From a virus (lineage: Duplodnaviria; Heunggongvirae; Uroviricota; Caudoviricetes): a DNA stretch of 4,956 nucleotides. Shown here in pieces: positions 1 to 4,956 of this stretch. Each line of letters opens with the position of its first letter. Within the stretch, counting starts at the first letter, position 1. Where the stretch lies: IMG/VR virus record IMGVR_UViG_2541047126_000008; one strand, 5' to 3'. Made by a program: the position numbers and the translations under genes. The notes beneath the pieces are model-generated. The model searched no databases, was not told the origin of the DNA, and worked only from the letters and a program-made list of their open reading frames with translations.

Positions 1-572
1 GTCACCTGGTCAGCAAATCCGTGTGCCAGACATTCGGCACCGGACATCCAGGTTTCATCCGCCAGCATGGCGGCAATTTCATCGGTGGTTTTTCCGGTTT
101 TCTGCGCATAGGCTGGCAACAGTACCGATTCGACTTTATCCAGCAAATCGGCATAACTGCGCATATCCTCAGCATCCCCGCCACTGAATCCCCATGGCTT
201 ATGGATCATCATGAAGGCATTTTCCGGCATAATGACCGTATCACCGGCCATCGCAATCACAGATGCCATCGAGGCGGCAACGCCATCCACATACACGGTA
301 ATGGTCGCCCCCTGATTTTTCAGGGCATTAAAAATGGCGATGCCTTCAAAGACATCGCCACCCGGTGAATTGATATTGAGATTAATGTGGGTGATATCGC
401 CCAGTGCATTCAGATCACTGATAAACTGCTTCGCTGTAACACCCCAGAAACCAATCTCGTCATAAATATAAATATCCGCGTCACTCTGGTGACCAGCCTG
501 CATCCTGAACCAGGAATTATTCTTCGGACTGGTCGTCGGTGTGCTGCGGCTCCTGTCGTTTCGTTGCGGCAC
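1..572 (-). CDS. ClpP-like (S14-type) prohead/head maturation protease, N-terminal part; 3' end lies beyond the left edge of the window
   Basis: Minus-strand frame open from about 572 down to position 3 with no stop (not in the ORF track because it has no stop inside the window). Hand translation from the ATG at 503..501: MQAGHQSDADIYIYDEIGFWGVTAKQFISDLNALGDITHINLNINSPGGDVFEGIAIFNALKNQGATITVYVDGVAASMASVIAMAGD...MIHKPW... The INSPGG, GxAASMAS (Ser codon 270-272) and MIHKP (His codon 201-203) motifs match the ClpP serine protease signature. Start is ambiguous: ATG at 503..501 has only a weak Shine-Dalgarno, whereas an in-frame GTG at 572..570 is preceded by a perfect AAGGAGG (revcomp of 578-584) with a 5-nt spacer; I report the longer version. 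Confidence 0.8.
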   Translation of the reverse strand, partial: MPQRNDRSRSTPTTSPKNNSWFRMQAGHQSDADIYIYDEIGFWGVTAKQFISDLNALGDITHINLNINSPGGDVFEGIAIFNALKNQGATITVYVDGVAASMASVIAMAGDTVIMPENAFMMIHKPWGFSGGDAEDMRSYADLLDKVESVLLPAYAQKTGKTTDEIAAMLADETWMSGAECLAHGFADQV

Positions 573-2026
573 TGCTGCCTCCTTTATCACTGGCCGGATC
601 GGTATCAAATACCAGATCCAGCTTGCGGTTTTCATCAATTTCGGCCTTGCGCCGACGTTTGACATCATCCGGATTACGACCACCTGCACGTACCCAGTCT
701 GATTCTGTCGCTGCTCCACCACGAATCTGAATTTTCCAGGCCTCAGCCTCCTTAACAGGGTCAATCCACGGCATCACCGGTCCGGAATACACCGCGGTAT
801 ACAGTGAAGAACGGTCAAGATCGCGGGGTAGCCTGATAACACCGGATGCCACAGCCTGTTTCAGCCAGGCACGATACATCGGGCGGGTGACGGCACCAAT
901 AAACCAGTCCTGCAGGATCAGGTAGCCATCAGTGGATTCAACCAGCTCCTGACGCTGGGCGCTGTAAGTGCCGTTATAGTTGCGCGCTGTACTGGAAAAA
1001 ATTCAGACGACTGCCCGCCGCCACGGCACGCAACTGACCATTACGAAAAGTTTCAAGGTTAGGATTGGGGCGATCCGACTTCACCATTCCGATTTCTTCG
1101 CCGGGTTTCAGATCGTCGTAAATAATGCCTGGCTGAATGGTAAGCTCGCGTTCCTTATCCTTGCTGCCATTACCATCCGGTTCATAGCTCTGCCCATCGC
1201 CTTTCCGGATGTACATCCCCAGAGCAGCGGCGATCCTTGCTGCAGTCAGCTCAGAATCCTCATACTCTTTCAGGGCACTGAGGCGGATCAGCACACCGGA
1301 CAACAAAGACGTCCCGCGCATCTGGTGCAGACGGCGAACAAATTTAAGATGCAGCATTCGCTCTGCATCCACTTCTTTGGTTTCCATCTGCCGTCCGGAT
1401 ACGGGACGGCTTTTATACACCAGATATTTTTCGGGACGCCCCCAGTCATCAACAAACACGCCCTGATTCAGCCTGTTGCTCTCATCACTGGTCATGGGAA
1501 TAAAGTCTGGCTCGAGCGCCTCCAGCCAGAAATGAACACCGGCAGAAGGCGTCAGGCTGTTTATGCGCCCGGAAACCATCTGGGCAAACACCTCACCATC
1601 GCGCAGCCAGGTACGCAGCATCAGACGTTCCAGCATCGGACGGGTAAACTGCCCGGTGACTTCCGGACTGACAGACCATTCACTCCATCGGGTGCGTATC
1701 TCCGCTGCCAGATCACGGGCAATGGCCCCATTGCGTAATACCGGATGTGGCTCGACAATAATCCCGTTTTTCCCCACCACCCGTTCTTCCAGCTTGTCAA
1801 ATACACCAATAACCAGATCGTGGTTGTTATCAAGGTAACGGGCCTGCTCACGTAACGACACGGCCCCGTACTGGCTTAACTGGTCGGCAGTTCGGTTTTC
1901 CCGCCGGGCTTTGTGTGTCCGCGTCGTTTTTACGGCCTCATAAGCCTGGATCACCGCACGGGAACGCAGCCTTGCCGCTTTCCATCCTGGTGAAAAAACG
2001 CCAATCACATCATCAAGAATTGCCAT
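517..2026 (-). pseudogene. Phage portal protein, lambda-type (PF05136-like), split into two frames by an apparent +1 frameshift in an A6/T6 homopolymer at 996-1001
   Basis: N-terminal segment: ATG at 2026..2024 (MAILDDVIGVFSPGWKAARLRSRAVIQAYEA..., a typical lambda-family portal N-terminus) runs in one frame to a TAA at 976..974 (...SRLNFFQYSAQL*), about 350 codons. The track ORF 974..2098 begins at an upstream in-frame Met, but 2026 is the likely start because it overlaps the gpW stop. C-terminal segment: a second frame is open from 1002 down to a TAA at 519..517 (...IFSSTARNYNGTYSAQRQELVESTDGY...QEPQHTDDQSEE*), about 160 codons. The two frames overlap only across 977-1002, which contains the A6 run; removing one A would give a single portal of about 500 aa. 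Confidence 0.8.
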
Positions 2027-2238
2027 CAGAACCTCGCCAGCCGGTACCCGGGATGCCCCCGTCGTCGTGTAATCAGAGCCGCAAGGCGGCGCTCCCACTC
2101 CTGCCGTCCCTGCCGGATCTCAGATAAGTTTTCCATGGTCATCTGCTGACCATTAAAGGTGACGGATTTTCCGTCCAGCACCGCCATTTCAGCTTCCGTA
2201 TAACGCTGAATCATGGCTTCGATATCATTCTGGTTCAT
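2026..2238 (-). CDS. Head-tail joining protein, gpW-like
   Basis: About 70 aa (MNQNDIEAMIQRYTEAEMAVLDGKSVTFNGQQMTMENLSEIRQGRQEWERRLAALITRRRGHPGYRLARF). Size, position between terminase and portal, and the C-terminal RRRG-P-GY motif resemble lambda gpW (which ends ...QRRRGPAGFYV, from memory). The track starts it at 2244, but GGAGG sits directly against that ATG; the second ATG at 2238..2236 has a 6-nt spacer and overlaps the terminase TGA as ATGA. Its stop TGA (2028..2026) overlaps the portal ATG as ATGA. Confidence 0.75.
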   Translation of the reverse strand: MNQNDIEAMIQRYTEAEMAVLDGKSVTFNGQQMTMENLSEIRQGRQEWERRLAALITRRRGHPGYRLARF

Positions 2239-4337
2239 AACCATCCTCCGGAAGTCAGCCAGGGGTTAACATCGTCAGTTACTGTTTTCTTCCGTTTTTG
2301 TTTTTTAACAGGCGTGGATACCGGTTCCGGTGAGGGTGACGGTTCGGTACTGTCCGGGACACTCTCCAGCCAGGTTTCCCGGCTCGCCCACCCCGGTGCA
2401 TCCGGCCAGCGGATCTTTTCGTATCCATGCAGAATGACCAGAGCCTCGGCATACACCATCAGGTCAAAAGCTTCGTTGGCACCGCGACCCGGCTTACTCC
2501 ATTTCCCGTCACTACTCCGCTCTTCATACGTCAGTTCGTCGTAAAACCAGCTCCCCAGCCAGTCAGGGAAATGCACATAGCCGGGACCTGGAGAGTCACG
2601 CCATAACGCGTTATTCACCCGGTCTTTCAGTGCATCCGTCTGAAGAAGCCAGAGCGGCACATCACCTGCGGCCTGCGCCCGTCGGCCCGTTCGTCCGGTG
2701 TTATCAGGGAATGTACGGGTGATCAGTTTTGCGCGCCGGATGCTGTCGCCCTTAAACAGGTAAATACGTTTACCAAGGCCATCACGACGGCAACGACGCC
2801 AGAATTTATAGGCATTATCAGTGACCCCGTCTTCACCGCCGGAGTCCACCGCCATTGCCATCAGTCGCATTTGTTGAGAAGGATCGGAGGCCAGCGGCCA
2901 GCTTTTATGAAAAACATCCGTCAGCAGGACATCCCAGTCTTCCGGATAGCTGGCCGGATCAATTCGCTGGCTCTCACCGTCGCTGTCACCGCGCAATGAC
3001 TGCGTGATGTTGTAACGATCAATAATCCAGCGTTCGCCACGGCTGCCATAGCCCGTTACCTGAACCACAAAACGGCGATGACGTCCCGCCTGCACATCCA
3101 CTGTCGCCACAAGGAAATTAACGCCATCCGGCACACTGCTGGAAGGAACTGGCTCTGCCCGCTGCTCAAGCAGTTCACTTTTTCGTTGCTCCATGCTGGC
3201 GCGGGGAAGATAAGGTAATCCCCAGTCGGTATTGATAACCGTCTTGAGTGTTTCTTCACTTCCGGTTGTCTCGTATTCCTGTTCTGCAGTAAGCAGTTTG
3301 TAAACGAGTTGCGAGAGTGTCTGGTAAGCAGCTGCCGGACCCTCCATCCAGAATGACGCAATACGTGAGCGTCGGGGATCACCATAACGACTACCATCCG
3401 CATTGATGGATTCACCATCCCGCAACCAGACCCCACGTCCGTTCAGCTCACGTTTTTGTTCAGGCATAATCCGTCCTGAACAGGAAGGACACTGAATATA
3501 AGCCGCCTCACTTGCCAGCACGGGATCGGCAATATCACGGAAACCAGCAACCACATCGCCGCAGGGCTGAAAATACTCACCACAGTGTGGACAGGGCCAG
3601 TACCAGCGACGGCGATCGCCACGGTTATAGAGCGACAGTATCCCCGTGGTTGGTGGAGCCTCATGCGGTGAAGTCCGTCGCCATTTCACATCCTTCACAT
3701 CCCTGCCGGGGGAACTCTCCACCAGCGTCATACCACTGGACATAAATGTGGTGGTACGTTTTGAGGCAAGAGAGAAGGCATCCCCCTCGCCATCAATATC
3801 TTCCGGAAAACGGTCATAATCCGTCAGCGCCACGCATTTATAATCTGATGAGGACATGATATTGACTGACGGCCAGCCGATTTTCAGGTAGTTGCCAGCA
3901 AGGAATGTTCTGTCATAAACGTTGTTGTCATTTTTGTTCGGACTCAGGCGACTGACCACTTCCGGGCTGACGCGAAACGTTCTGGCGAGTCGTTTTTTGG
4001 AGTGTTCGCGGGCTTTTTCCTCCGTCATCTGAATGATCAGCATATCCGCAGGATCGCAAATCACGTTGTAAATCACCCAGCCGTCAATCAGGCCGATAGT
4101 CTTGCCGGTTCGTGCCGGGCCAACAAATATCACTGCGTCGTATTCACGCGAGGCCAGGCAGTTCATCGGCTCAATAACATACGGTGCCACCAGCGGATCC
4201 CACGGGACTGAGTTCCCGGCCCCCATGGGCACCCGCATATACTGAGCAACGGCATCAGCAACCCGCATTCGTCTCGGTGCGCGAAGGATATAACCTGAAT
4301 CGGTTCGTGCTGCCTTTGCGGTTTCCTGATTCAGCAT
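2235..4337 (-). CDS. Terminase large subunit, lambda gpA family
   Basis: 700-aa ORF. Walker A P-loop VGPARTGKT near the N-terminus; CPHCGEY ... CPSCSG paired-cysteine motif (lambda gpA has ACPHCGEEQ, from memory); FLVATVDVQ segment resembling the gpA nuclease-domain region (lambda YLTAGIDSQ, from memory). AGGAGGAG Shine-Dalgarno (revcomp of 4340-4347) upstream of the ATG at 4337..4335; that ATG overlaps the upstream frame's TAA as TAATG. Confidence 0.93.
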   Translation of the reverse strand: MLNQETAKAARTDSGYILRAPRRMRVADAVAQYMRVPMGAGNSVPWDPLVAPYVIEPMNCLASREYDAVIFVGPARTGKTIGLIDGWVIYNVICDPADMLIIQMTEEKAREHSKKRLARTFRVSPEVVSRLSPNKNDNNVYDRTFLAGNYLKIGWPSVNIMSSSDYKCVALTDYDRFPEDIDGEGDAFSLASKRTTTFMSSGMTLVESSPGRDVKDVKWRRTSPHEAPPTTGILSLYNRGDRRRWYWPCPHCGEYFQPCGDVVAGFRDIADPVLASEAAYIQCPSCSGRIMPEQKRELNGRGVWLRDGESINADGSRYGDPRRSRIASFWMEGPAAAYQTLSQLVYKLLTAEQEYETTGSEETLKTVINTDWGLPYLPRASMEQRKSELLEQRAEPVPSSSVPDGVNFLVATVDVQAGRHRRFVVQVTGYGSRGERWIIDRYNITQSLRGDSDGESQRIDPASYPEDWDVLLTDVFHKSWPLASDPSQQMRLMAMAVDSGGEDGVTDNAYKFWRRCRRDGLGKRIYLFKGDSIRRAKLITRTFPDNTGRTGRRAQAAGDVPLWLLQTDALKDRVNNALWRDSPGPGYVHFPDWLGSWFYDELTYEERSSDGKWSKPGRGANEAFDLMVYAEALVILHGYEKIRWPDAPGWASRETWLESVPDSTEPSPSPEPVSTPVKKQKRKKTVTDDVNPWLTSGGWL

Positions 4338-4540
4338 TACTCCTCCTGCTGTAATTCCTCCTCATCATCCGCACCTGCTTCGGTCACCCGCAGGGCTATC
4401 TGATCGCGCAGATCATCAATAATGGACTGAACACGGCTCACAGCGGCAGGCTGCAGACCACAGTCACGTTCCAGAATATCCGGTAATGTCTCCAGCACCT
4501 GCACGACCGCTTTTGCCCAGATGGCAAACTCCCGTCTGAC
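4337..4540 (-). pseudogene. Terminase small subunit, 3' fragment (about 67 C-terminal codons); 5' part apparently displaced by the IS insertion
   Basis: Minus-strand frame open through 4540..4340 with no stop and no ATG, ending in a TAA at 4339..4337 that overlaps the terL ATG. Hand translation: VRREFAIWAKAVVQVLETLPDILERDCGLQPAAVSRVQSIIDDLRDQIALRVTEAGADDEEELQQEE*. The position immediately upstream of terL and the acidic C-terminal tail fit a Nu1-like small terminase. The frame runs on into IS sequence and hits a stop at 4573..4571. Family assignment is by position and composition only. Confidence 0.5.
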
Positions 4541-4582
4541 TGAACCGCCCCGGGTTTCCTGGAGAGTGTTTTATCTGTGAAC
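4541..4582. repeat. Terminal inverted repeat region of the IS3-family element (exact IR length not determinable without the other end)
   Basis: Plus-strand sequence tgaaccgccccgggtttcctggagagtgttttatctgtgaac lies between the IS boundary and the OrfB stop; the partner IR is outside the window, so the pairing cannot be verified here. Confidence 0.5.
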
Positions 4583-4956
4583 TCAGGCTGCCAGATCATC
4601 GTTTCCGATGGAAGCATAATAAGCTTTTTCTGCTTCTGCCGGAGGAGTATGGCCCAGCCTTCCCAGCAATCGTCGATTGTTATACCAGTCCACCCACGTT
4701 AGTGTGGCCAGTTCCACTTCTGCACGGTTTTTCCAGCTCTTACGGTGTATTACCTCCGCTTTGTAAAGACCATTGATGCTCTCAGCCATCGCGTTGTCAT
4801 ACGAGTCGCCTGTACTCCCTGTTGATGCCAGTAATCCGGCTTCTTTTAGTCGCTCCGTATAGGCCAGTGACACATACTGAGAGCCTTTATCGCTGTGATG
4901 GATGGTGCCAGACGGACGACGGGCCCACAACGCCTGCTCCAGCGCATCCAGCACGA
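4583..4956 (-). CDS. IS3-family transposase OrfB (DDE integrase core domain), C-terminal portion; N-terminus outside the window
   Basis: Track ORF 4583..4954 (frame stays open to the window edge). Translation ...HHSDKGSQYVSLAYTERLKEAGLLASTGSTGDSYDNAMAESINGLYKAEVIHRKSWKNRAEVELATLTWVDWYNNRRLL... carries the second Asp and the Glu of the DD(35)E triad (DSYDNAMAES) with a conserved Lys 7 residues after the Glu, plus the WVDWYNNRR tail typical of IS3-family OrfB. Confidence 0.9.
   Translation of the reverse strand, partial: VLDALEQALWARRPSGTIHHSDKGSQYVSLAYTERLKEAGLLASTGSTGDSYDNAMAESINGLYKAEVIHRKSWKNRAEVELATLTWVDWYNNRRLLGRLGHTPPAEAEKAYYASIGNDDLAA

Follow-up and report, generated by a model that had tools for sequence, protein, structure and literature searches.

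The terminase locus

We analysed a stretch of viral DNA of 4,956 nucleotides (the window; Caudoviricetes, IMG/VR record IMGVR_UViG_2541047126_000008); unless another record is named, coordinates given below are positions in this window, and every gene lies on the minus strand. Positions 4541..4956 hold the terminal 416 bp of a 1310-bp insertion sequence (IS) of the IS3 family, IS629/IS1203, which has the same transcription direction as the neighbouring genes and extends past the window end. Positions 4337..4540 hold an orphan 3' fragment of a gene of the DUF1441 family, which we take to be terS, the gene of the terminase small subunit; the fragment begins with the duplicated codon 97 and continues through codons 98-163 to the stop codon (assigned by translation, Pfam and PHROG). 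It adjoins an intact gene for the terminase large subunit, terL (2235..4337, 700 aa), which is of the lambda gpA type, with Pfam matches to GpA_ATPase (E 9e-72) and GpA_nuclease (E 1.9e-85) and a match to PHROG 15. Our reading of this arrangement, to which we give a probability of about 0.93, is that a 1310-bp IS629/IS1203 element transposed into terS of a lambda-like prophage of the Sp3/CP-933K type in an O157:H7-like E. coli and thereby duplicated 3 bp, GAC.

On the minus strand, 4540..4340 form an open frame of 67 codons (VRREFAIWAKAVV...DDEEELQQEE; VRREFAIW...EEELQQEE) that lacks an ATG and ends in an acidic tail, and its stop codon TAA (4339..4337) shares bases with the ATG of terL (4337..4335) in the overlap TAATG, all of which the preliminary description of this DNA had already read correctly from the letters. 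The Shine-Dalgarno sequence of terL, AGGAGG, lies inside the last terS codons.

The insertion sequence

The inverted repeat TGAACCGCCCCGGG places the first base of the element at 4541, where the preliminary description had put an IS3-family terminus together with an OrfB transposase. This boundary is borne out from both sides, as the match to the uninterrupted locus of E. coli EDL933 stops exactly at 4540 and four further copies, which in other genomes lie between unrelated flanks with 3-bp repeats, begin with the same base. The terminal inverted repeat occupies 4541..4566 (TGAACCGCCCCGGGTTTCCTGGAGAG) and equals the reverse complement of the opposite end at all of its first 13 nucleotides and at 22 of 26 overall. 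The element can be followed over its full length in E. coli 7784 (positions 6342-7651 of the extracted locus, L001), where it measures 1310 bp, which is the length of IS629, and runs from TGAACCGCCCCGG to CCGGGGCGGTTCA, with TG...CA ends and imperfect terminal inverted repeats. Within the window, the minus frame 4954..4583 (listed among the open reading frames) encodes the 123-aa C-terminus of OrfB with its catalytic region and the stop, and matches the Pfam integrase-core families rve_3 (E 4.1e-12), rve (E 5e-10) and rve_2 (E 1.1e-6), as is typical of a DDE transposase. Translation of the full element in strain 7784 reveals both orfA and orfB, which in this family lie in the 0 and -1 frames and of which the window itself holds only the orfB 3' end. 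RefSeq labels the 7784 copy 'IS3-like element IS1203 family transposase, programmed frameshift' and also marks an AL1L pseudoknot in it. Another O157 copy and the segments of the Sakai prophage Sp4 annotated as IS629/IS1203 agree with this element at 100% of positions, so that the earlier guess of an IS629-type element proved right; judged by its sequence, it is IS629/IS1203, a member of the IS3 family.

In the survey of O157 genomes by Rump et al. (2011; PMC3271280), IS1203 is treated as an isoform of IS629, target duplications of 3-4 bp are reported, and no target preference of IS629 was found. The same survey located 62% of the IS629 copies in prophages or prophage-like elements, in agreement with the statement of the preliminary description that elements of this type are known to insert in prophages. 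The present copy shares with the O157 copies of that survey the length of 1310 bp, the TG..CA ends, the programmed frameshift of orfA/orfB and, with its 3 bp, the size of the duplication; it differs in its position, as the Sp3 site is absent from the table of phage-associated IS629 target sites of four reference genomes (PMC3271280).

Insertion point within terS

The far side of the IS was read in E. coli 7784, a strain that is 100% identical to the window over 325-4956 but not over 1-324. Beyond the other IS end, the 7784 sequence continues with GAC and then with the reverse complement of terS codons 1-97 (MDHELKNLVLNINQLAAL...PASDV), starting with ATG. The trinucleotide GAC thus stands on both sides of the element; the copy in the window lies at 4538..4540 and reads on the coding strand as codon 97 (GTC, Val). 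When the IS was removed in silico together with 0 to 5 bp, only the 3-bp version occurred in EDL933, and removal of the IS with one GAC restored exactly the uninterrupted 163-aa gene of EDL933 (WP_000349509) and Sakai (ECs_0824). Apart from the insertion, the loci of 7784 and EDL933 differ at 2 of 10,541 aligned bases. RefSeq lists both terS halves in 7784 as incomplete DUF1441 pseudogenes around the IS1203-family transposase. The IS lies exactly between codons 97 and 98 of terS, with codon 97 (GTC) duplicated, and the insertion is intragenic. The proposal of the preliminary description that an IS had split terS, and its expectation of the missing N-terminal part and of a 3-4 bp target-site duplication next to 4540, are herewith confirmed in 7784; an insertion between genes, which it had named as the alternative, does not apply, since the element sits within the split gene.

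It should be noted that IS629 occurs at 16-40 places per genome in the records examined, and that such repeats are classic sites of mis-assembly, so that the junction might be thought to be an assembly error, in which copies of a multicopy IS were collapsed or wrongly joined. We regard such an artefact as so improbable as to be practically negligible: four complete O157 genomes, each sequenced independently, share the identical junction, a fifth (ECP19-198) shows it split over two alignments, and in 7784 both sides can be read together with a perfect 3-bp duplication.

Identity of the interrupted gene

The 67-aa fragment is identical to residues 97-163 of the EDL933 and Sakai proteins. The similarity of the fragment to terminase small subunits that had been predicted was found in PHROG 141, 'terminase small subunit', with E 1e-28 for the fragment (family positions 110-176) and E 2.7e-77 for the whole protein; a weaker second match is to PHROG 57 (E 8e-9), likewise annotated as terS. 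In Pfam, only DUF1441 is matched, by the whole protein with E 4.6e-44 and by the fragment with E 1.6e-12 (family positions 94-146). The Sakai gene ECs_0824, located in prophage Sp3, is annotated 'phage terminase small subunit'. Phage records containing an identical protein (PhiR40_1, PhiR47_1, PhiR55_1) or one that is 86% identical (mEp460, Ayreon, phi458) also exist, several of them annotated as terS. The gene order in EDL933 and Sakai is lysis genes, terS, terL, and no other terS candidate was found between the lysis genes and terL at the loci of 7784, EDL933 and Sakai.

The fold was modelled with AlphaFold on a homolog that is 99% identical (P0001; alignment of 29 sequences, mean pLDDT 76). 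In this model, residues 9-55 form a predicted winged helix-turn-helix (strand 9-11, helices 12-19 and 23-32, strands 37-39 and 42-46, helix 47-55); residues 68-89 then form one long helix, and the C-terminal part (94-162) is helical as well. The piece beyond the other IS end, codons 1-97, would therefore contain the winged helix-turn-helix that had been expected there. The best matches of the model among predicted viral structures (BFVD) are terminase small subunits (E 5e-7 to 1e-6).

The module as a whole resembles that of lambda, the order terS-terL-W-portal-protease in the window being equivalent to nu1-A-W-B-C. Shared with the Nu1-gpA module are a terS, a terL of the gpA type with ATPase and nuclease, a W-like open reading frame, portal and protease genes, the overlap of terS with terL and the predicted N-terminal winged helix-turn-helix. 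The two modules differ in that the similarity of the small subunit to Nu1 is marginal, and in the Pfam scan the DUF1441 protein gave no match to a Nu1 family.

Several points weigh against our reading and should be set out together. The far side of the IS lies outside the window and was taken from strain 7784, which differs in window 1-324. The Pfam family is still described as of 'unknown function', and the link between DUF1441 and terminases consists of annotation, position and predicted fold. Alignment with lambda Nu1 by hhalign is weak (E 0.0022, probability 13%, 44 columns) and covers the N-terminal winged helix only. A sequence search of the PDB with the intact protein and with a 28-sequence profile gave no significant match and recovered no Nu1 structure, and Foldseek of the model against the PDB returned nothing at E 0.001; its top PDB matches, none of them significant, were winged helices of the MerR/BmrR/RacA type and a 72-residue chain of 6hn7 (E 0.14), an entry from work on how pathogenicity islands of E. 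coli redirect packaging.

On the strength of the function-unknown label, the weak Nu1 match and the missing PDB match, one could argue that the interrupted gene encodes some other small DNA-binding protein of the DUF1441 family, which merely lies upstream of terL. This is most unlikely in our view, because PHROG 141 and PHROG 57 are both annotated as terS and phage records carry the same label, because the gene occupies the position of Nu1, its stop shares bases with the start of a gpA-type terL and no rival candidate stands between the lysis genes and terL, and because the matches among predicted viral structures are terS proteins. In addition, the Sp3 terminase was counted as intact by Asadulghani et al. 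(2009; PMC2669165), a count based on the DUF1441 gene together with terL. Annotation of the family, gene position and predicted fold together lead us to accept the interrupted gene as a putative terS.

Other E. coli have this terS in a frameshifted form (P0094, 129 aa, 25 member sequences, phrog_5710), which diverges directly after residue 100, where the frame is lost (..PASDVRRE). By comparison of the sequences, this frameshift is a second, independent inactivation of terS, a few codons away from the IS site.

Consequences of the insertion

The terS 5' fragment ends directly after Val97, where the terminal TGA of the IS provides the stop codon; the 3' part of 67 codons has no start codon and is orphaned, and terL is intact. 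A product of the 5' fragment would be limited to the winged-helix part predicted to bind DNA and the first long helix. In lambda, the terminase small subunit is essential for the recognition of cos, and the C-terminal part of Nu1 contacts gpA. Since it is the C-terminal region of Nu1 that binds gpA, we infer that no small subunit made in cis would be able both to bind cos and to recruit TerL, and that the prophage would have lost its own terminase holoenzyme.

An effect on the transcription of terL is a separate matter. In another O157 prophage, an IS629 in stx2, within the late operon, abolished neither the downstream late transcripts nor phage production (PMC7430833), and strong polarity on terL is for this reason not expected; late transcription probably reads through the IS.

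The preliminary description held that the insertion alone would block packaging, and in its strongest form this means that the IS was the lesion that turned a viable phage into a defective one. Such a view can build on the split of terS, on the presence of no other full-length copy of this allele in 7784 (a 541-bp query found it in one place) and on the textbook role of the small subunit in cos recognition in lambda. The state of the remaining prophage, however, argues otherwise.

Prophage context and earlier defects

The locus is of the Sp3/CP-933K prophage type, which in Sakai is located between ybhC and ybhB and carries nleB2-1, nleC, nleH1-1 and nleD as cargo. Downstream of terL, the window contains a 72-aa open reading frame (2026..2244) at the position of lambda gpW, between terL and portal, identified from the list of open reading frames and gene order only. 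The portal gene (517..2098) is split by a +1 frameshift into the open reading frames 2098..974 and 879..517, as alignment to an intact 502-aa O145 allele demonstrates; the extra T lies at about 1001-1002. EDL933 and Sakai, both without the IS, have a portal gene split in the same way, and the portal defect is thus older than the insertion.

Further defects were described for Sakai Sp3 by Asadulghani et al. (2009; PMC2669165): the integrase is defective, repressor and replication genes are absent, the portal is defective and the head function absent. In their experiment Sp3 was not circularised, replicated or packaged, although its terminase was counted as intact. The same authors found the nu1 gene of Sakai Sp4 to be disrupted by an IS, and Sp4 DNA was nevertheless packaged, probably by the terminase of Sp14 acting in trans. 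We considered whether the Sp4 disruption might be the same event as the one described here and rejected this, as the Sp4 element is ISEc8 (IS66 family), located directly upstream of an 80-aa remnant of a different terS (Sakai, L006 32388-35082). Both cases concern a lambda-like O157 prophage in which an insertion sequence splits terS directly upstream of an intact terL; they differ in the element, the terS and the prophage, and also in behaviour, since Sp4 excises, replicates and is packaged in trans, whereas Sp3 does none of these.

With the portal frameshifted also in IS-free strains, with Sakai Sp3 failing to excise, replicate or be packaged despite its intact terminase, and with Sp4 packaged despite its IS-disrupted terS (PMC2669165), we consider it very unlikely that the IS on its own made a viable phage defective. 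What stands of the claim of a packaging block is its part in cis, and only there, because the terS-disrupted Sp4 is still packaged; the part according to which the insertion alone decides does not stand, as the Sp3 type was already frameshifted in the portal gene. The IS alone does not change the fate of the phage, given the portal frameshift and the defects of Sakai Sp3 in integrase, repressor and replication. The insertion would rather be recent and probably neutral, adding to the decay of an already dead prophage that is presumably kept for its effector cargo.

Distribution and recurrence at the same nucleotide

Window positions 4200-4956 were used as BLAST query against 5,426 complete E. 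coli genomes. The IS part is present in 4,313 of them and the whole junction in 25, five of which are O157; the phage side occurs in about 1,390 genomes (1360 with most of the phage-side query). Features found in this many genomes are no accident of the letters. The phage side is at least 99% identical in 794 genomes, whose listed annotation is a single DUF1441 gene without IS, as was directly confirmed in EDL933 and Sakai. The restriction of the junction to 25 of the roughly 1,390 genomes containing the locus, with five O157 among them, points to a recent insertion.

In the remaining 20 genomes with the junction, an IS occupies the identical nucleotide position and points the same way; by their names these genomes belong to O145 or O145:H28, with two lacking a serotype. 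In the O145 strain RM9872 (NZ_CP028379; L003 4342-5651), the IS differs from the present one at 54 of 1310 positions (95.9% identical), and these differences are spread throughout the element, including nucleotides 15-16 from the junction. This divergence of 4% equals the distance between IS629 subtypes (PMC3271280). On the far flank in RM9872, a DUF551 gene of the early region near the integrase follows, without target duplication, which points to a deletion of the early and lysis regions that, as far as the sequence of the flank indicates, accompanied or followed the insertion in this strain. The O145:H28 prophages (for example RM9872, RM13514) resemble the window in having an IS629-like element that interrupts terS at the identical nucleotide and in the same direction, with the same 3' fragment beside terL; what sets them apart is the other IS629 subtype, the DUF551 flank without duplication and an intact portal gene.

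That O157:H7 and O145:H28 prophages have different IS629 subtypes at one and the same nucleotide, pointing in the same direction, suggests that the terS codon 97/98 position may be a true insertion hot spot. We put this forward tentatively, on sequence comparison, and hold it to be possible though on balance doubtful. Alternatively, the recurrence at the same nucleotide could be a chance coincidence noticed after the fact, or a single ancestral insertion could have been spread by prophage recombination and then overwritten by gene conversion between IS copies.

In three other IS629 copies (L007, L008, L009), C/TTCCCG stands some 7-12 nt beyond the end of the element, which is also seen at the terS site. 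A shared target motif CTCCCG was considered and rejected, because the copies had been chosen by BLAST extension into the flank, which probably brings in an ascertainment bias.

Significance

The kind of event described here is already known, and both terS halves had already been flagged as pseudogenes in RefSeq; the insertion is an ordinary case of prophage decay, one more hit on a cryptic prophage. By itself it is of little consequence: small-scale change in O157 genomes is driven mainly by IS629, and most copies of this element lie in prophages. The insertion has two practical uses. Shared by only five complete O157 genomes, it could serve as a marker of a strain or sublineage, and it illustrates neatly how a cryptic prophage with effector genes loses a further packaging gene. 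Should the hot spot be true, it would offer a first handle on the target choice of IS629, which the literature describes as unknown, and would imply either a structural or sequence preference for the target or a recurrent selection to knock out the terminase, by which effector-carrying prophages would be locked in. The case of Sp4 and Sp14 also illustrates that terminase defects can be complemented in trans within the prophage pool of O157 (PMC2669165).

Candidate cohesive-end site and head-gene mosaic

Upstream of terS and outside the window, the sequence GGGCGGGAGCGTCGCGG (L001 8128-8112, minus strand) matches lambda cosN and the next 5 bases at 13 of 17 positions. This cosN-like sequence (GGGCGG..CGCGG) lies 186 nt upstream of the terS ATG, compared with 190 nt in lambda. 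Searches at the locus for the lambda cosN 12-mer (at most 2 mismatches) and the 17-mer (at most 3 mismatches) found nothing, and a MAFFT alignment of the regions upstream of terS in lambda and Sp3 was uninformative. The match is the sole one with at most 4 mismatches in 12.7 kb, where about 0.25 would be expected, with a pattern that was relaxed after the stricter searches had failed, and we regard GGGCGGGAGCGTCGCGG as a candidate cohesive-end site only.

At its other end, the window holds the 5' part of a fusion gene of a ClpP-like prohead protease and the major capsid protein (1..572), of which bases 1-324 represent a divergent mosaic allele. None of the complete E. coli genomes exceeds a match of about 93% over window 1-700, and by this comparison the head-gene allele of the window strain is not represented among them. 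All 55 mismatches between the window and 7784 fall into positions 1-324 (43 at third codon positions, 12 amino-acid changes), and the mosaic boundary is sharp, with bases 325-4956 identical to 7784.

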